From a virus (taxonomy: Duplodnaviria; Caudoviricetes), in IMG/VR virus record IMGVR_UViG_3300025498_000017, positions 1-26,561 of that record: a stretch of 26,561 nt of DNA; one strand, given 5' to 3'. Below the pieces are notes generated by a model. It made no database searches. It was given only the letters and a program-made list of their open reading frames with translations, and was not told the DNA's origin. Both the position numbers and the translations under genes were made by a program. Within the stretch, counting starts at the first letter, position 1. Each line of letters opens with the position of its first letter. Shown piece by piece: positions 7,506 to 22,984 of the stretch.

Positions 7506-8030
7506 TTAAACTCCTGCGACGGCGGCAAAGCGACCGAGTTCATCTTTCTGGCGCAACTTGCGGTGATCTATAAAAACGAAGGAATCATCTGTCATTCGGG
7601 CTTGCGGCAATTCTCTATTCACCGCTCGTTTGATCCAATTACAATTGGCACAAAGCAGTTGATAGATTTCGCCCGGAACTGTCTTCAAAACAGTATCGAG
7701 CAATCGAGAACCTTCCGCCCCTTTAACTCTTCGACATTGTGCCCCATCTCCCATCACGTGGTCGATTTGTAGACACCGGGTATCCTTACAACCTCGGGAA
7801 CCATCTGCATTAAAGGAAGTACAATCCTGGTCGGAACACCGTCCTCCGAGATACTCAATTACGGCTTCTCGCTTCGCCTGATACTTTAGATAAGCATTGT
7901 CTTTCTTGTAAACCCTTCGCCTGAACTTTTCATCGGTAGCGTACCTCTCTCGTTTCTTTTCATTCAATTTTGAAAGATACACTTTACGGGCTTCCGCAGG
8001 GAGCGATTCCAACCATTTATTATTGCTCAT
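7506..8030 (-). CDS. Free-standing HNH-type homing endonuclease
   Basis: LGGRC..C...LQIDHV.GDG...YQLLCANCNWIKR; likely start ATG 8030 overlapping the upstream stop (track start 8096 overlaps the previous gene). Confidence 0.8.
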   Translation of the reverse strand: MSNNKWLESLPAEARKVYLSKLNEKKRERYATDEKFRRRVYKKDNAYLKYQAKREAVIEYLGGRCSDQDCTSFNADGSRGCKDTRCLQIDHVMGDGAQCRRVKGAEGSRLLDTVLKTVPGEIYQLLCANCNWIKRAVNRELPQARMTDDSFVFIDHRKLRQKDELGRFAAVAGV

Positions 8031-8986
8031 TAGGTTTGCCTCGCTTGTATTCCTTGTTGGGTCCACATCGTCTGTTGTCCTGTTAAATTGTTCCACCCAT
8101 TTAGAAAAATGTTCCGTTCCTCTTCGGTAAGTCCTTCCGCCCTAGCGAGTAGCCCTGCGGTAAACTTCTGGTTTGCAATCTGGAATCTATTGTCATCCGC
8201 GAACATCCAGATTAGAGCGAGGAAGCCCCACGAATAAATGTACTGCATGAAGTCCGGCATCGGAGCCCATGTCTGGTTCAGACTAGTGATCTCCGGGGCC
8301 GCATTCATTACGTGTAATGATACAGGGAAGTTGGCCGACGGAGAAGGCATTACACGGAAGGTAACATTCCCGTTACCATCTTCCACCTCCGGGCCGATAT
8401 ACATTGGTCGGGCCTGAATGGAATCGAGGGCAAGATTATTCTCTACCTTCAACTCAATCCACTTTGCAGGCGTCTTCGTAATATCAAGAACAGACGCATG
8501 CTCAATGTGCGAAAAGTTCGGTACGGGGACTACATAATCCTGCGCTGTAGCCATTGTCAATACGGGCGTGCCTGTAGCGGCAGTAGGGCTTAGATTTACG
8601 AAGTCTACATTTGCTGTAATCTGCGTGGGAGATGTAACAAGATTTACAAGCAATTGACCGTTCAGGAATGCCGTCGCCCCGGTGAGTCCGCCTACTAGAA
8701 TCAAATTACCTAGAGCGAAAGAGTTTACCGAAGGGATTGTTACAACGCCATTCGTAATAGAGATGTTGCCAGCTATAGGAGCCGAATAAGGGGTCGAAGA
8801 GGTATTGAAGGATACTTCCTGCACGTTCCACCACCAAACAAACGGCGGGCCGAGTATGGTCTGCATCACCACATTCGCAATAGTTTTAGCAGGTTCGAGG
8901 GAGTTACCAATTCCAGAATTACGGTTGAAACTAAATCGTTTCGCCCATTCTACTGTATCCATGATCTTTACGGTTGATAATGCCAT
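8030..8986 (-). CDS. Head-tail adaptor / tail tubular A-like protein (paralog 2)
   Basis: 318 aa; IANVVMQTILGPPFVWWWN and C-terminal PMPDFMQYIY helix resemble adaptor proteins; aligns with 9491..10711. Confidence 0.55.
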   Translation of the reverse strand: MALSTVKIMDTVEWAKRFSFNRNSGIGNSLEPAKTIANVVMQTILGPPFVWWWNVQEVSFNTSSTPYSAPIAGNISITNGVVTIPSVNSFALGNLILVGGLTGATAFLNGQLLVNLVTSPTQITANVDFVNLSPTAATGTPVLTMATAQDYVVPVPNFSHIEHASVLDITKTPAKWIELKVENNLALDSIQARPMYIGPEVEDGNGNVTFRVMPSPSANFPVSLHVMNAAPEITSLNQTWAPMPDFMQYIYSWGFLALIWMFADDNRFQIANQKFTAGLLARAEGLTEEERNIFLNGWNNLTGQQTMWTQQGIQARQT

Positions 8987-9440
8987 TGGAGATTCCTTCT
9001 AAAAACTTAATCAGATCAGTCTTGTTGTACTTCACAAGATACTGAATGACTTTGATGATATGTGGCTCTAACTTTCCCAGAGCCGTGTTGCATGTCGCAC
9101 ACAAGATTCCACGATGTGTACCGGGCTTATCATGTTCATGGTCAGTGTGCCAAACATCGTTGAAGCCCTTACCCCACTTCAATCCAGTGCGTCCACAGAT
9201 ATCACAAGCATTTCCTTGTGCCACTAATTCAGCATCTCGTTCTGCGAGCGTCCAACCATATAAAGTCACGCATTGGCGTTCATTCTTTCGCAAGTTGTGG
9301 GCGGCGGGATCAAGGGCACGAGCTTTATTCGCCCTATCCCGAGCGCATTGCTTACAAAAACGAAAACTCACTTTGTCGTTAGAAAAATGACCCGTGTTTT
9401 CAGGGGTATACTCGTGACCATTGCCGCAATGTGTGTTCAT
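8931..9440 (-). CDS. Free-standing endonuclease VII-like homing endonuclease with N-terminal Zn-binding domain
   Basis: YGWTL...QGNACDICG...HTDHEH...RGILCATCNTALG (Endo VII motif); N-term THCGNGHEYTPENT...CKQC. Confidence 0.85.
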   Translation of the reverse strand: MNTHCGNGHEYTPENTGHFSNDKVSFRFCKQCARDRANKARALDPAAHNLRKNERQCVTLYGWTLAERDAELVAQGNACDICGRTGLKWGKGFNDVWHTDHEHDKPGTHRGILCATCNTALGKLEPHIIKVIQYLVKYNKTDLIKFLEGISNGIINRKDHGYSRMGETI

Positions 9441-13160: not shown

Positions 13161-13370
13161 TCACGCTGCGGTCAAACCATATCTACGCCGAATACTCGCA
13201 GAATAAGATTTCATTTTGGCAGCTTCTGGGTTTTTTATAGCTCGCTCTTGTTGCCAAGCCCTTTGATACTCCCTACTTTTTTCTAAGTTGTCATAATATC
13301 GCTTTTTAGAACGCTCATTAATAGCGATACGTTTTTCTTCAGATGTATGATATTTCAAGGGTGTAGACAT
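13161..13370 (-). pseudogene. Truncated Endo VII-type homing endonuclease (N-terminal part only)
   Basis: Basic helical N-terminus ending RRRYGLTAA*; in Endo VII HEGs YGLT precedes the CxxC catalytic domain, which is missing here (compare 8931..9440). Confidence 0.55.
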
Positions 13371-14055: not shown

Positions 14056-14583
14056 TCAGAATTTGTAGCGGTCGCCAGAACAAATCTTACTTATATGCGA
14101 CTGATGAACCTTGAATCGCAAGGCGAGATCGCAAACTCGAACTCCACCCTGTCGCAATCTCCGAATCTCAGAGACTTGCGTTTCAGATAAAGTACGATGC
14201 GAATTACATTGTCGAATCCTTGCATCTAGGGAATGCTTTTTCCCATTCCATGGATTGAATTGTGACACCCTTAATCGGGCATTGTCACTCATCTTTCGGA
14301 GAGCTAATTCTGTATGCTTATATCCTGATGAACCGTCCCCACCATCTGTGAGATTCCTTAAATATCCCATCCCAAGGTCTTTACGACCATAGTAAGAGAT
14401 CAGAAAAGTTTCTGCAAATAGTGCGTCTTGTTCAGATACAAACTCTTGGATTAACACCCGTGACGCATCATTCGGCGGTTTAGCGCCTTTTCGTCCATGT
14501 CGCCAAAAGGCACGGTTTCCCGTACCCTTACCGACATAGTATGGTGTACCGTCTTCACGGAGCCATAGATAAGTGTAGAACAT
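14056..14583 (-). CDS. Free-standing GIY-YIG homing endonuclease with NUMOD3-like and C-terminal HTH domains
   Basis: FYTYLW...PYYVGKG..R, AE..LI, LRNLTDGGDG, GYKHT/GKKHS repeats, C-terminal HTH; ATG 14583 after AAGGAG. Confidence 0.85.
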   Translation of the reverse strand: MFYTYLWLREDGTPYYVGKGTGNRAFWRHGRKGAKPPNDASRVLIQEFVSEQDALFAETFLISYYGRKDLGMGYLRNLTDGGDGSSGYKHTELALRKMSDNARLRVSQFNPWNGKKHSLDARIRQCNSHRTLSETQVSEIRRLRQGGVRVCDLALRFKVHQSHISKICSGDRYKF

Positions 14584-14683
14584 AATTCTCCTTAAAGAAT
14601 TGGGAAGGATGTTAAGGCACCCTTCCCGCCACAGGATCATGACTTCCTGTAGTATCTTGTTCTGGCTTAAGCCATCAATTCAA

Positions 14684-17382
14684 TTAGCTAATAGCTGCAA
14701 TTTGTTACTCGCCTTTCGGCGGGATGAGCCATTTCTGCTCATCTCTCATGGTTGTATTCCCATGAGATCAGACTATCGCATCACCTTTCGGCGTTCTCTC
14801 GCTTAGTCGTTCAGGCTGCTTTCGCTTGCCCCTTGTTGGCATTTCAGCGTTCAAGTCAATCAGAGAGAATTTAAGCGGCTCCATTGTATTAAAGCCGCAT
14901 CGATTTGACGCATCATTTACAAATCGATAAAATCCGCATGCGTTAAGATTCCTAGCTCACTGCACTTGCAGCGTCGAGAAGTCTCATACGGATCGTAGTA
15001 TCGGGTCCAAGGCTCGTCGTGAAGTGCACACGATAGCTCGTCCATCCGGGGATCAACCCTTCAGGATCGGCAACAGTCGGCTCTGCGTTCTGCACGATGT
15101 TGCACTCGATGTTACGCCACTCACCGTTGCCATAGCCCACATCACCCTTCGCTCCAAGGTTGACGGAGAAGATACCGTCGCGCCCGAAGATATAGGTGCG
15201 GAGTGCGACCAGTCCAGAGTACCCACCGTAGTTCTGGGTCTGGGTGACGAGGTTCGTCTGGAAGAACTGAACGCCGGTAGACGGCAGTTCAATGACTTCA
15301 GTCAGATCGACCGAAACGAGACTTTCCATCTTCAACTGGCCCACCGGAGTGTGCTTCAGAATGTCGATGGGAGAATCGTTGCTGTTGTCAGCAATCACAT
15401 CGCCCAAAGCGAACGGGTGTATGTATTTGTGTTTAGGCTAAATTAGACAGAACACATATGCCCCATTTCATCATGCAAATACTCTTTGCATCTAGGGCAA
15501 TGATCTATATCTAAACCCTGATTCACATCAGGTGCACTCTCACAGTCGCCTGTGAGATCAGACTCTATCTTCACTTCCAGATCTTCGGAAGCGCTTGACG
15601 TATTAGTCGTTACAGATTTTTGATGGTGCAAAAGTTTCATCTCCTGATACATTTTTTCTCGCAAGTCAGGATTTTCTACTTTATGCAATCGAACAAACTT
15701 CAAGAGCAATTTTGCTTGTTCCCGTTTTTCTAATAGATACGGGAGTATCGCGAGCAAAAACTTCTCTCGGGATTCATTCGAATTCAATACCCATTTGTAG
15801 CAAATCTTGTTCGCACGTCTGTCACTGCAATAGTAAGTGCCGCCTACGACTTCAACCAACATTTTAAGCAACGGCAAATAGGTATTCGTCACACCCAGAT
15901 TAGCGGTGTAGTGGAAACAATTAGTTTTGCTATTTTCGGGCCTTCGTATCTTAGATATCGTAAGGTGTCCCTCGCCATCGATAATTCCAGCGATATAGGC
16001 AAACTTCGTTTTTCTCATCAAATCTTTCCTCGGTATTGTCTGCTACTATATTAGTATAACAGAGGTCCACCGATTTAGTCAAGTTTTTTAACGCAGGAGC
16101 CATACTAGCAACCCGCACAAGCGGACATTGCCTTTTGGTTAACCCCTGCGAACGTCTTCGTGCCTTCGTCGAACGGACGCACGCTGCGACCCGCCAGCGA
16201 CTGAACGCTGTTACGAATCTGAGAGAGCGACAGAGCGGTGAAGCTCGAAGTGCCCGAAGCGGCCAGTTCAGTAAGGACACTGGCATCGATGCTGGATGCA
16301 CCATCAGCGGTTGCACGCACGAGTGCGGACAACGATTCGCCAAGGCGATACGACATTTCGCGGGCAACGTTCTCGACGGTGTTGTCAATGGCAGTCGCCA
16401 AACTGAGCGAACTGAAATTGGCGTAGTCAGCATATTCTCCAATCGTGGCAGTGGTCGTAAGAACACTGACAGATAGAGAACTGCCGACAGTACCTTCCGT
16501 AGTCTGGGCCACGTTTGCGGCCAACGGAACGTACATGAACCAAACGTGTTTTGGATTTAAGACTTACTGTCCCTTATGTCACCATAAGGTCGCTCTCATT
16601 GTCACCAATGAGTTCGGGCTCTATCTTTGTCATTACTTGTGAAGAAGTAATGACATTTAGCGTATTAGTCTCTACAGATTCTTCTCTCTGATTTAGAAGA
16701 CAGCACTTTTGTACTAACTCCCGACGTTTTTCCTGTTCACCATAACCTAAACGACAGAAGTCCAAAGCGATTTCTGCTTGCTTTCGTTTGATTACGAGGT
16801 ACGGAAGAATTCCCAAAAGAAACGATTCTCGATTCTTTTTACCGGAAGGATGCCAAACGTATTGAATTTTCTTGGACCAATCAGTGTGTGATCTAGTGTA
16901 AAATTTTCCACCAAAATTACCCACCAACCATTTCATCAAATTCATAGACGTGTTGTAAATTATAATTTGCAAAAAGAAAGCGGATTGTCCATCCGGCTGT
17001 CGTTCGTGCAAACACACACAACCTTCACCATCAAATATTCCGGCCACATACGGCCATTTACTGCTCATAAGAAGCCTTTCCTCGGTATTGTCTGTTGTCA
17101 GATGTTCACCGATTTAGCTAAATTTATTTAGTACGGGACCATCATGTAATCTCGTACTGATTACCTGAATTAACAGGGAGGTCCAAACGTTCTGAACAAG
17201 CAACGAATGGGGTTTGCGCCTTCAGGTTCTCACGGAATTTCTTCATTTATATTCCGTTATTGTCAGTATACCACAATACCCTACTCATGTCAACAGCCTG
17301 ACGTTTACGACAAGAAATCGTAAAACTTTACCGTGGACTGAGGCAGGTTGGCTTGCTGGTTTCCTGCGGGTGAAAAACTCAT
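14684..17382 (-). CDS. Major capsid protein (N4-gp56-like), spliced: join(17382..17317, 17243..17149, 16540..16142, 15423..14988, 14913..14892, 14697..14684), 343 aa
   Basis: Follows scaffold; SD GAGG; joined exons give one frame MSFSPAG..VKFYD|KKFRENL..NQYEM|FMYVPL..FAGV|IHPFALGD..TTIR|MRQIDAAS|AIS*; motifs GEYADY, IHP..LGD, TYIFG, DP.G..GW. Confidence 0.8.
14698..14891 (-). ncRNA. Compact ORF-less group I intron (194 nt), capsid intron 5
   Basis: P1 GCGGCTT/GAGCCGC with U.G; core ACGACTAA...GCGATAGTCT (P7); terminal G; removal restores Ser-Ala-Ile-Ser-stop. Confidence 0.85.
14914..14987 (-). other. Core-less mini-intron B (74 nt) containing an alternative capsid C-terminus
   Basis: P1 ATCCGT/GCGGAT (U.G), P10 ACGCAT/ATGCGT, extra helix ATCGATTTG/CAAATCGAT, ends TAAATG; loop encodes MRLLDAASAVS*. 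Confidence 0.7.
15443..16021 (-). CDS. Intron-encoded single-motif LAGLIDADG homing endonuclease
   Basis: YIAGIIDGEG; ILPYLLEKREQA; C-terminal part reads through the 3' half of the intron core. Confidence 0.9.
   Translation of the reverse strand: MMRKTKFAYIAGIIDGEGHLTISKIRRPENSKTNCFHYTANLGVTNTYLPLLKMLVEVVGGTYYCSDRRANKICYKWVLNSNESREKFLLAILPYLLEKREQAKLLLKFVRLHKVENPDLREKMYQEMKLLHHQKSVTTNTSSASEDLEVKIESDLTGDCESAPDVNQGLDIDHCPRCKEYLHDEMGHMCSV
16053..16082 (-). promoter_or_regulatory. sigma70-type promoter inside intron 3 for the LAGLIDADG ORF
   Basis: TTGACT-18 nt-TATACT with TGn extension; the -10 box lies in an expanded hairpin absent from the related intron 2. Confidence 0.55.
16541..17148 (-). 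mobile_element. Group I intron (608 nt), capsid intron 2, with LAGLIDADG ORF
   Basis: P1 AGTACGAGAT/GTCCCGTACT; P10 TACATGA/TCATGTA; P3 TTTAGC/GCTAAA; core AGAGACTAA..AAGATAGAGCCC; P9.0 GAAC/GTTT before terminal G; junction AT+G = Met (a 1-nt shifted Ile junction is also in frame). Confidence 0.85.
16574..17068 (-). CDS. Intron-encoded single-motif LAGLIDADG homing endonuclease
   Basis: YVAGIFDGEG; ILPYLVIKRKQA; C-terminus overlaps the intron core. Confidence 0.9.
   Translation of the reverse strand: MSSKWPYVAGIFDGEGCVCLHERQPDGQSAFFLQIIIYNTSMNLMKWLVGNFGGKFYTRSHTDWSKKIQYVWHPSGKKNRESFLLGILPYLVIKRKQAEIALDFCRLGYGEQEKRRELVQKCCLLNQREESVETNTLNVITSSQVMTKIEPELIGDNESDLMVT
17244..17316 (-). other. Core-less mini-intron A (73 nt) containing a promoter
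   Basis: P1 TTTACGAT/GTCGTAAA (U.G), P10 TTCTT/AAGAA, extra helix ACGGAAT/ATTCCGT, ends TAAATG; in-frame TAA if retained; removal fuses YD|KKF. Confidence 0.75.
17265..17293 (-). promoter_or_regulatory. Near-consensus sigma70 promoter within mini-intron A
   Basis: TTGACA(17293-17288)-17 nt-TATACT(17270-17265), TGn extended -10. Confidence 0.75.
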
Positions 17383-19911: not shown

Positions 19912-22449
19912 TTACATCACCGTTGGCATCTGGCCTTCTAACCCACCTGTTGAGGGCTCTCCCAGAACCGTCTCGCTAAGCCCTGAGGCTTTTGCAGAGG
20001 CGATTACTAGATCACGCTTAATACGATTGTTGGATGACTGATCTTCCAATTCCTGCTTCTGTGCAAACTTGTCATTGCTCTGCTGTTGCGCGGCTTGCGT
20101 CCTCTGCGCGGCGATTGCAGCGGGAGAGTTCGCATCCTTTTTATCCTGCATTGCTTTCGGCATCGCCTTGACGATATCCTGTCCGTTCTTCCACTCAGAG
20201 GCTTCCATCCACATTTTGAAGACTACGTTGTAATCAATGTACAGACCCATCTCTCCTAATGCTTGGGTAAGCTGTGGGTTGTCAAGGAACTGCGTCAACA
20301 TAACCATCGACTGAGCCATGGTTCGTTTCGCAGCCATGCTTGCGCCCGCTAGGACTTCGAAGTCCATTTGGGCGTCCCAATACCGCTGCATATCAAGGGC
20401 CTGTGTAAGCGGACTGCCGAGCACATCACCCAATATATGGATGATGCTCGCGTCAGACATTTTCGTAAATACCAACTCGTCCACGATATACAGGAACGGT
20501 TTGAAGACTTGCTCAATGAAATTATCCAATGGGCCGTCTAATCTTGTCGCACTAGCTGATGCCTGAATTGTAGCACCACCTGAGGTTCGACCCATGGAAG
20601 AACGTGGTCCTGCTGAACTGCCTTGAACTAACTGTTGATCTGCGCCAGATGACGATTCCGTCGCCTGCTCAGATTCTTTTAGTGCATTCCAAATGTCACC
20701 GGGAACCTTAGGCGTCTCCATTAGAGTGAAAGCCTTGTCCGTTTCCCCATCAACCGTCATGATCTTGCCGACGTTTGTTTTGACCATCTGTGTAAGGTTA
20801 TTCCCGTCCCTACGTTTTAGGTAAACAGGATTTACGCCATACGAAAGGATTTTCAGGATAGCGTTAATCGTTCCTTGATCTACGCGTTGGTTCTGGCCGA
20901 CAATAAGGCCGAGCCCCATGCCGAAGAATGCTTTCGGTCGATTCCACCAGTTGGATGAAAGAAATGGAATGCGTTTGAATTCATTGTCTCCGGTATAGAT
21001 GACTTTCTTATTATCTAACACCCGGATTTTCCGTTTGCTGTCCCAATATTCCAACACCTCCAGTTTTGTGCGGAGTGGGTCTACTGAGTTCGCAACGTTT
21101 ACATCCTGTGCGTGATGAACCGCACCCTTCATGTAAAGGGTTTGCTCTGTCTGCAAATTGCTGGCGGGAGCCGGGGGTTGAATCCACGCGTCTTTCAAAT
21201 TCTCGGGGAAAGACCATCCATCCATTACAGATGCATCTTCTTTCGCAGCAAGTAACAATGCCTGCTGGAGATCATATAGTTCATAGAAGTCCATGTAACG
21301 AACGTCTACAACCCACTTCGCATCTCGGATATCGGGGACATCTAGTTTCGGGTCCACAAGAACTTTGTCCAGAGGACGATGCTCGAAGAATGGCATCGGG
21401 ACAGATTTTACAGTTGTCGTGATCTCTGGCGGCTGGTCTAATGAAACGCTTATCGTAGTCTTTTGTCCGTCTGGTCCTACGTCTTCCTTTAGAATAGCGG
21501 CTTTGCGCCGGGACGTAACAATTTCAGTCCAGTCGTATCCCCACTTCCAAATTCCCGTTCCTAGGTGAGCCATTGTCTCAAGACCCCATTTTGTTTCGGT
21601 CTTGAATTTGCTCTTGTCCAGAATGTACGAAAATAATGCTGTCTTTGCATCAATTATATTCTGATGTTCGCCGGGTCGCGGTCGTAGAATCATCGGCGGG
21701 TCATCGTAAAAGAGACCTTTGTACAGTTGTGGAACTACTGAATTCACAATCTTCGCAACAGTAAACCGCTGTATATTCGGTTCGAGGACATAAGTATTGT
21801 CGTAAACAGTCATCGGACGCGGTGCTTGAAATAGAAGGTCGGCATCCACCGTTGTTGCTACTAGCACTTAGTAGGATAAGTCATTTCTGCTTATCTCATA
21901 CGGTTACATTCCCGTATGGTCGGACTATCGCATCACCCATAATTAGGTGCCCGCTCATTTAGTCTCTCAGCGTGCCTTGCGGCTTCGCCCTTGTTGGCAT
22001 TTCAGCGTTCAAGTCAATTAGAGTAGGTTTTACTGGCGCAATACTCTTGACGCCAGAGCAAATTCCCAAATTTGTTACTGCTTTCGCAGGATCAGACATT
22101 TCTGCTGACCTCTCACGGTTGTTATTCCTCGTAAGTTCGGACTATTGCTTCGTCTTTAGACGCCCTCTCACTTAGTCTCTCACGGTGCTTTCGCTTCCGC
22201 CTCGTCTCCATTTCAGGGTTCCGAGTCAATCAGAGTGGGTTTTAAAACAGCAGATTTTGTTTACTGTTTCTGGAGAAGAAAATCTCTCGCAGCTTGTGCA
22301 GAGCCGACGACCAAAGCTAAATCGGAGGATAATCCTTTTGGATCACCTTGAGTTCCTTTGATATCGCCCGCTGGGGTAAAATTTTCAGCAGTCAGTGGCT
22401 TGTGTGCGTTACCGTCCGACTGAATTTTTGCATCAGTCACTTCAGGCAT
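19912..22449 (-). CDS. Portal protein, spliced: join(22449..22263, 22066..22050, 21846..19912), 712 aa
   Basis: Follows terminase; HLGTGIWK, VLVDP, EVLEYW, FFGMG..L, RTSGGA portal motifs; spliced junction reads LLQKQ-W-NLLWR-DADLLF. Confidence 0.85.
21847..22049 (-). ncRNA. Compact ORF-less group I intron (203 nt), portal intron 2
   Basis: P1 CTGGCGT/GCGCCAG (U.G); P10 GTATT/GATGC; P7 GAGACTA/TAGTCC; terminal G. Confidence 0.9.
22067..22262 (-). ncRNA. Compact ORF-less group I intron (196 nt), portal intron 1
   Basis: P1 AAACAGT/GCTGTTT (U.G); P10 CAAAATCT/GGAATTTG; P7 GAGACTA/TAGTCC; terminal G; junction T+GG = Trp. Confidence 0.9.
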
Positions 22450-22984
22450 GTGCCTCCCGTTCCTTTTTCGCAGCTCGATATTTTCGGTTTGCTAGAGCTG
22501 CCTTACTCGGATTTTCCGACCGTCTCCTGATATTTGATTCGATTACCGCAGGACACGGTATTCCTCTCTTGGACTCACTCAAATGCTTACGATGGTCTAG
22601 TGATTTGGGTCGTCCCGTCAAGGCTAAAGCAACGGCTAATTTTTGGTGTTCAGTATTCGTACATCCCTCACGAGTTGCCCCGCCTAGGCCACCTTCCGCC
22701 AAATTATAACCAATTTCCAAATCTCTTGAATCAAGAGTTTGAATAAAAAACTTTTCTAAGGCGTTCATTTGCTCTTTATCACAAGGACGAACTAGTGATG
22801 AAATCACAAACGCCTCAGGACCATATTTTCGTATGGCACGGTATAGAAGCGGCTTGTCGTTGGTTCTACCGCCAGATATAGCTCGACGACACTGCAAAGC
22901 GAGATATGTTGATAGGTCATCTCCTGAATGTTGCCCAATGTAAATCTTGGAATTCACCGTATTTGTGATTGCGTAAATATGCAT
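22442..22984 (-). CDS. Free-standing GIY-YIG homing endonuclease with NUMOD3-like repeats
   Basis: HIYAITNTVNSKIYIGQ, LYRAIRKYG..AF, LEKFFI, GYNLAEGG. Confidence 0.9.
   Translation of the reverse strand: MHIYAITNTVNSKIYIGQHSGDDLSTYLALQCRRAISGGRTNDKPLLYRAIRKYGPEAFVISSLVRPCDKEQMNALEKFFIQTLDSRDLEIGYNLAEGGLGGATREGCTNTEHQKLAVALALTGRPKSLDHRKHLSESKRGIPCPAVIESNIRRRSENPSKAALANRKYRAAKKEREAHA

Follow-up and report, generated by a model that had tools for sequence, protein, structure and literature searches.

Bacteriophage T7 makes two capsid proteins with different C-termini, gp10A and gp10B, from a single gene, with frameshifting adding the extension. In bacteria, most group I introns contain an early in-frame stop codon, in a setting where transcription and translation are coupled (available text of PMC3073962), and the phage introns presented in the accessible parts of PMC2988022, PMC12880540 and PMC11878797 are ordinary ones; collaborative homing also features there. 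Much smaller introns, the PaSSU type of fungal nuclear SSU rDNA, are 56-81 nt long, contain P1, P10, an intron-to-3′-exon pairing and a putative P7, and are described as self-splicing in vitro in the portion of PMC3160393 available. Engineered group I cores (spliceozymes, trans-excision-splicing ribozymes and cis-splicing cores) remove coreless segments by means of P1, P10 and a terminal G, as far as the accessible sections of PMC4094466, PMC2532722 and PMC11417360 describe them. In addition, endonuclease insertions in Allomyces atp6, Ophiostoma rps3 and Phlebia atp6/cox2 bring along a duplicated or foreign C-terminus (available part of PMC4019555). In the open-access literature, no description was found of phage introns that are coreless or spliced by a neighbour, or of spare exons. 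Here, we describe a capsid gene with two complete ends and compare it with these systems.

A major capsid gene with two ends

The window, the whole 26,561-nt stretch analysed here (IMG/VR record IMGVR_UViG_3300025498_000017), carries on its minus strand a phage head module with terminase, portal (split), probable scaffold and major capsid genes, the last of these in six pieces (Table 1). The protein encoded by uninterrupted relatives is approximately 343 aa long, the commonest length among their open frames (23 of 39), and it matches PHROG 1357 (E 7e-16), which is annotated as major head protein. The TIGR04387 match of the capsid protein remained below the cutoff (41.8 bits versus 60). A structural model built from 79 homologues (pLDDT 89) resembled the N4 and Moo19 capsids in Foldseek (E about 1e-12), and by sequence and modelled fold the product is an N4-gp56-like protein akin to tailed-phage capsid proteins, for which we take the label HK97 fold to apply. 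None of 120 homologues or 28 listed cluster members was identical over its full length to either window product, the best of them reaching 326/343. A genome scan returned three relatives; two of them lie in assemblies from Acidobacteria and the third in one carrying the label Bacteroidetes, so that the host is uncertain.

Several other elements were observed around these genes. The portal gene appears to be split by two more compact group I introns that are separated by a short exon (approximately 22260-21870, minus strand), and a GIY-YIG ORF (22442-22984) with a consensus-like promoter lies upstream. Small ORFs are found between virion genes on the minus strand at 13161-13370, 8931-9440 and 7506-8096; the second matches endonuclease VII, and the other two gave no Pfam match. 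Near-identical strains may also differ in intron content, as L007 contains an extra 623-nt intron at codon 92 (L007:2360-2982) that is absent from the window.

Table 1. Features of the capsid locus. Mini-intron A and introns 2 and 3 were placed by spliced alignment; the boundaries of mini-intron B and intron 5 were read directly from the sequence.
Feature	Position	Strand	Description
Mini-intron A	17244..17316	-	73 nt, coreless; guide and exon-helix design like that of B; no spare
Intron 2	16541..17148	-	full group I intron with endonuclease-like ORF
Intron 3	15424..16141	-	full group I intron with LAGLIDADG ORF; terminal A
Capsid exon 4	14988..15423	-	last 7 nt form the 5′ strand of B's P1, ending in the U of U·G
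Mini-intron B	14914..14987	-	74 nt, terminal G, catalytic core absent
Spare C-terminus	14952..14987	-	MRLLDAASAVS*, in the P1 loop of B
P10 guide strand	14938..14943	-	6/6 pairs with start of downstream exon, 4/6 with start of spare
P1 guide strand	14931..14937	-	7 pairs with 5′ exon; predicted pair probabilities 0.97-1.0
Px strand	14920..14928	-	9-bp helix with exon bases 14907-14899
22-nt exon	14892..14913	-	MRQIDAA plus one base; 6 nt in P10, 9 nt in Px, 7 nt in P1 of intron 5
Intron 5	14698..14891	-	compact 194-nt group I intron, terminal G, no ORF
Last exon	14684..14697	-	completes SAIS*
Homing-endonuclease-like ORF	14056..14640	-	free-standing, after the capsid gene; likely start 14583, read from sequence

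The original prediction held that an unspliced message and one freed of B and intron 5 would each end in a complete C-terminus, and translation bears this out. The unspliced frame closes with MRLLDAASAVS*, and joining 14988 to 14913 and 14892 to 14697, the junctions originally proposed, yields MRQIDAASAIS*; both routes give 343 aa, which supports the idea of an intron-like insert whose copy makes splicing optional for a full-length protein. The two ends share 8 of 11 residues and only 2 of 12 codons (21 of 36 bases). Their roles can be assigned by comparison with relatives: 63 distinct uninterrupted tails read MRQID, IREID or QRQID, and judged from these tails, the downstream, intron-split MRQIDAASAIS is the family's native end and the upstream MRLLDAASAVS the spare. 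This point had been missed or understated, as had the lack of a core in B, which makes B dependent on the ribozyme of another intron. Leu336 of the spare occurs in none of these 63 tails and is likewise absent from all 119 full-length homologues whose tail is of the standard form; the motif IRMRLLDAA gave 11 viral hits, each of them a spare. The last eight codons of the spliced product recur in an uninterrupted relative (L170), in support of the intron 5 boundaries.

The claim that the spare had been recoded stood only in part. Leu336 is indeed distinctive; however, the spare and the split tail of the same gene share 18-24 of 36 bases in five lineages, and distant uninterrupted alleles share a median of 25 of 36 (443 pairs). 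Since such alleles differ nearly as much, most of the codon difference is ordinary synonymous divergence, and no more than a slight excess beyond this level is left for deliberate recoding.

The layout is shared by nine viral contigs (L001-L009, one of which ends inside intron 5) and three further metagenome contigs, a fourth, equal in length to the window, not being counted, and it is kept in two diverged phages, L075 and L100. Immediately beyond the capsid stop (14680-14056 in the window), the strains L007, L092 and L093, which are near-identical through intron 5, have an ORF and a promoter that differ from those of the window.

The coreless insert, its neighbour and their relatives

Mini-intron B is preceded by U and contains a 13-base guide, of which seven bases pair with the 5′ exon (with U·G at the cut, and seven pairs in all three coreless lineages) and six with the 3′ exon (6/6 pairs, with two two-sided changes). 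The Px helix encloses in its loop the terminal G of B and the exon strand of P10, and the 22-nt exon is used completely by P10, Px and the P1 of intron 5. No core motif for P3-P7 with its G-binding site, and no P7-like element, was found in B; only 17-19 bases follow the guide, leaving no space for a core, so B is a group I-like substrate and not itself a group I intron. Its last bases show only a weak P9.0-like pairing to intron 5. Intron 5, which gave no Rfam hit (below detection; in the window Rfam reported introns 2 and 3 alone, both under the gathering score), can be folded into P1, P3, P4, P6, P7 (14808-14804 with 14775-14771), P8 and P9. Across 15 related introns, 93.5% of 479 cells in the core helices are paired and 22 of 32 pairs show two-sided changes, P7 being invariant, and intron 5 is therefore a group I intron with a full core (P3, P4, P6, P7, P8 and P9), predicted to be self-splicing.

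The pairings of B favour the native exon over the spare. In the five carriers, the guide forms 6, 6, 6, 6 and 4 of six pairs with the true exon versus 4, 3, 4, 4 and 2 with the start of the spare, and Px forms 8-9 of nine pairs versus 4-5. Across the three coreless lineages, P1, P10, Px and the P1 of intron 5 are paired in 97.7% of 87 cells, compared with 28-45% in slid controls, and six two-sided changes were counted (two in P10, two in Px, one in the P1 of intron 5 and one at the gapped edge of the P1 of B); this is a small set, and not a fully independent one, as the cassette probably moves sideways. The 22-nt exons of the window and L075 differ at two bases, both compensated in B and both between natural residues. 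An exon-skipping product was rejected as a conserved form, being out of frame and different in all three lineages.

Relatives occupy site B in different ways. Most have no insert there; L079/L080 have a full intron without a spare, L064 and L122 a full intron with one, and the window lineage, L075 and L100 the coreless insert with a spare followed by intron 339, which stands alone in L035 and L069. The full introns of L064, L122 and L079/L080 establish site B as a real group I site. Most near-end introns (codons 313-339, plus that of L080 at site B) have no spare, which is thus not required. A search for spares of the QL type returned only L064, and 14 of 26 hits to a terminal-G motif lay in unrelated genes. 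The window and L075 are 71.5% alike in exon DNA, 88% in B and 90% in intron 5, whereas L075 and L100 are 86.5% alike in exon DNA and 67% in B, and intron 5 is 98.5% like that of L035. Because cassette likeness and exon likeness disagree in this way, the cassette probably moves and recombines between capsid lineages, as far as these comparisons tell; a test of the mini-B carriers as one clade, made without L100 (whose protein is identical to that of L075), was mixed (p-AU 0.077 and 0.003). The insert-free L010 is 95% identical over exon 4, yet of the four bases immediately preceding site B three are different, as might result from an endonuclease conflict.

Inserts of this kind are not confined to site B. 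Spliced alignment was applied to 35 of the 41 loci without an open capsid frame, plus L100 and L122; after removal of near-duplicates (L001, L002, L008, L042, L059, L062, L065, L079 and three L007 inserts) and artefacts (L037, L074 and one L069 frameshift), 81 inserts in 26 sequences were retained. All 24 distinct inserts shorter than 100 nt have a terminal G and a U·G guide that pairs better than in shuffled sequences (p<0.05). A long intron lies 22-120 nt downstream (within 125 nt) of every mini-insert (25/25) versus 5 of 56 long introns, where long means 180 nt or more, the core pattern having missed some of them, and where the rows are related and cover nine insertion sites. Since all mini-inserts precede a long intron, the downstream core would act in cis, and intron 5, from its position, is the candidate core donor of B. 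A Px-like helix was significant in 5 of 24 mini-inserts and is hence not a general feature.

Mini-intron A lies 95 nt upstream of the full intron 2. It contains a near-consensus sigma-70 promoter (TTGACA-17-TATACT, 11/12), and its 3′ end is an ATG in frame with exon 2; the two may serve expression of the endonuclease of intron 2 or of a shortened product. Several long introns have A as their last base, where G is usual (window intron 3, at 15424, and introns of L021, L022, L035, L051, L058, L063, L064 and L122). In addition, unspliced read-through into introns at codons 91, 186 and 313 gives recurring in-frame peptides (KAMSACAGC, KAMSAVAGR, SMAAVAGR and KAFAAAA) in the window (16141-16105, minus strand), L021, L022, L035, L051, L058, L061, L063 and L067-L069, which are possibly degradation tags and thus a second answer to unspliced translation.

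Both tails are conserved as protein. When the spares of the three lineages are compared in pairs, 4, 13 and 16 base differences cause 0, 1 and 1 residue changes, and between the three split tails, where some bases are also held by RNA pairing, 6, 9 and 8 differences cause 2, 2 and 0, the two changes being natural variants (simulation p 0.03 to 0.0003). The R-x-R-x-I-D pattern of the last strand persists in distant homologues. From this conservation, both ends are probably kept by selection and hence translated, in agreement with the suggestion that two capsid isoforms may be made, and the removal of B is implied because the conserved split tail lies beyond the stop of the spare. Of 76 distinct complete tails, five are followed by a second copy that is intact, as are the core and the U·G guide accompanying it, and two more by a six-base complement only; the degenerate downstream copy in relatives that would have counted against the original prediction was thus seen in none of the five.

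RNA data bear on close relatives of the window. Exact searches from the upstream exon gave no spliced form for B or intron 5 in 10 viral and 4 metagenome hits. RNA run X1 contains relatives only and gave no spliced junction of the window lineage. Its variants agree with L065-L067 at all 24 places and with L069 at 23 of them, and its contigs are approximately 99% like L067/L069; joins aligned to the window itself, such as 17243/17317, were discarded as proof of splicing, the contigs being mostly under 95% alike to it. Compared with L067, one RNA contig skips exactly a 33-nt coreless insert, where the shorter flank has 68 letters, and a 203-nt intron, where it has 22; part of this intron is present separately. 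Another continues past the site-313 junction and matches the following exon of L069 at 30 of 30 letters; the next intron of L069 (339) is 97% identical to intron 5. As these contigs come without a DNA run from the same sample, insert-free alleles may also explain the joins. Protein P0128, from a 1154-nt contig, is identical to L069 in every exon piece, and its end is the read-through product of intron 339. This state is the one expected if mini-inserts leave first, and would suggest such an order should P0128 derive from RNA.

Proposed mechanism and competing explanations

Starting from what is directly observed (both frames, the missing core, the pairings with their covariation and the amino acid conservation of both tails), we consider it likely that the ribozyme of intron 5 removes the spare-carrying coreless B and then itself, and that the spare rescues messages that are not spliced. 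In a first round, the P1 of B would dock in the core of intron 5, with Px and the P1 of intron 5 forming intervening hairpins, and ligation would be directed by the terminal G of B and P10; normal splicing of intron 5 would then produce the native end. A message translated before splicing would end in the spare and still have the predicted final beta strand (residues 333-339), which a stop at the splice site would cost. A dependent insert adds a second risk, because an early exit of intron 5 would strand B, and the spare would end such messages too. The spelling of the spare likely avoids competition for P10 and Px, and possibly the re-creation of a homing site or a deletable repeat; resistance to endonuclease cleavage, as first proposed, is plausible and remains putative. 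As for the origin, an intron at site B may have taken up an insert-free gene end into its P1 loop (compare L064 beside L134), and the core of B may have been lost once intron 339 was adjacent. With slightly less confidence, yet still as the favoured view, B can be regarded as a natural non-autonomous 'satellite' intron, consisting of the guide only, excised in cis by the next ribozyme in two splicing rounds, insured by a translated spare against the wrong order and mobile with its host intron.

Among the alternatives, the best surviving one, although unlikely, is that the spare is the sole working end and the old end is displaced, as happens with the fungal mitochondrial endonuclease insertions, with B, the 22-nt exon and intron 5 as 3′ untranslated relics. 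It would be in keeping with the homing-endonuclease-like ORF after the gene, with the close insert-free relatives L010 and L134 being respelled exactly at site B, with the resemblance of the sequence behind the spare of L064 to the 3′ flank of L134, and with searches giving no spliced read for the window lineage. However, the compensation in P10 and Px and the conservation of the split tail are sensible only if B is excised, since the stop of the spare lies upstream, and none of the five carriers is decayed. It is quite improbable that B is excised other than by intron 5 in cis, either by itself in the manner of PaSSU or in trans, through a host factor or an intron that has already been excised. 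PaSSU self-splicing and the trans excision of coreless introns by engineered ribozymes (accessible part of PMC4094466) provide precedents for it; nevertheless, it does not predict that every mini-insert should lie directly upstream of a long intron and only 5 of 25 close downstream of one, and B shows no P7-like element.

A regulated switch between functionally different capsid subunits, as the original prediction's wording of ends 'selected' by splicing would have it, we regard as very improbable. Three lineages retain Leu-Leu, with six Leu codons that vary from one lineage to another, and Leu336 is absent from uninterrupted close relatives, both of which could point to a special role. Against this, the ends are equal in length and their three differences, in or beside one predicted beta strand of the capsid model, are mild; 7 of 79 wider homologues have Leu at this position, QL or TI is found in other spares, a single form is made by uninterrupted relatives, and two of the three differences fall where the native exon pairs with B. 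Two forms with different jobs are therefore unsupported, and the two capsid forms, probably both made, are probably interchangeable. An assembly chimera of two strains, which had been named as a possible refutation, is excluded for practical purposes by the recurrence of the layout in 12 other contigs and two diverged phages.

Comparison with known systems

Taken together, the layout is real and conserved and probably spliced with a borrowed core, giving two interchangeable capsid ends rather than two functions. If this is true, the ribozyme of a natural group I intron is able to remove a coreless intron in addition to its own, and near-end introns can carry coding insurance against translated unspliced RNA. 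The locus would offer a 340-nt substrate for in vitro study of splice order and core sharing, and it is a warning for annotation, as such inserts escape Rfam and the apparent end of a gene may be a spare.

The fungal mitochondrial insertions share with this locus a differently spelled second end that keeps the protein whole and an endonuclease gene nearby (available part of PMC4019555). An in-frame replacement C-terminus lies upstream here as well; unlike in those insertions, the displaced native end is still selected for and splicing can rejoin it, a coreless guide module serves as carrier, and the interval between the ends, only 38 nt, holds no endonuclease ORF, the nuclease-like ORF lying downstream of both ends and differing between strains. 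B resembles the PaSSU introns in its size (<100 nt), P1, P10 and intron-to-3′-exon pairing, and differs from them, as they are described in the accessible text of PMC3160393, in lacking P7 and an rDNA IC1 ancestry and in residing in a coding phage mRNA beside a full intron. Engineered cores are laboratory designs with the guide mostly on the ribozyme, according to the available portions of PMC4094466, PMC2532722 and PMC11417360, whereas in B the guide is on the natural passenger insert.

With known group I introns, among which intron 5 itself belongs, B shares P10, a terminal G and a P1 that includes U·G, and the capsid gene shares several introns per gene and an in-frame stop soon after the 5′ splice site. 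In contrast to them, B lacks the P3-P9 core, and its stop does not truncate the protein, as a complete spare C-terminus precedes it; an exon-skipping product is not conserved. As with gp10A and gp10B of T7, one capsid gene has two C-termini, which here are of equal length and would arise by splicing.
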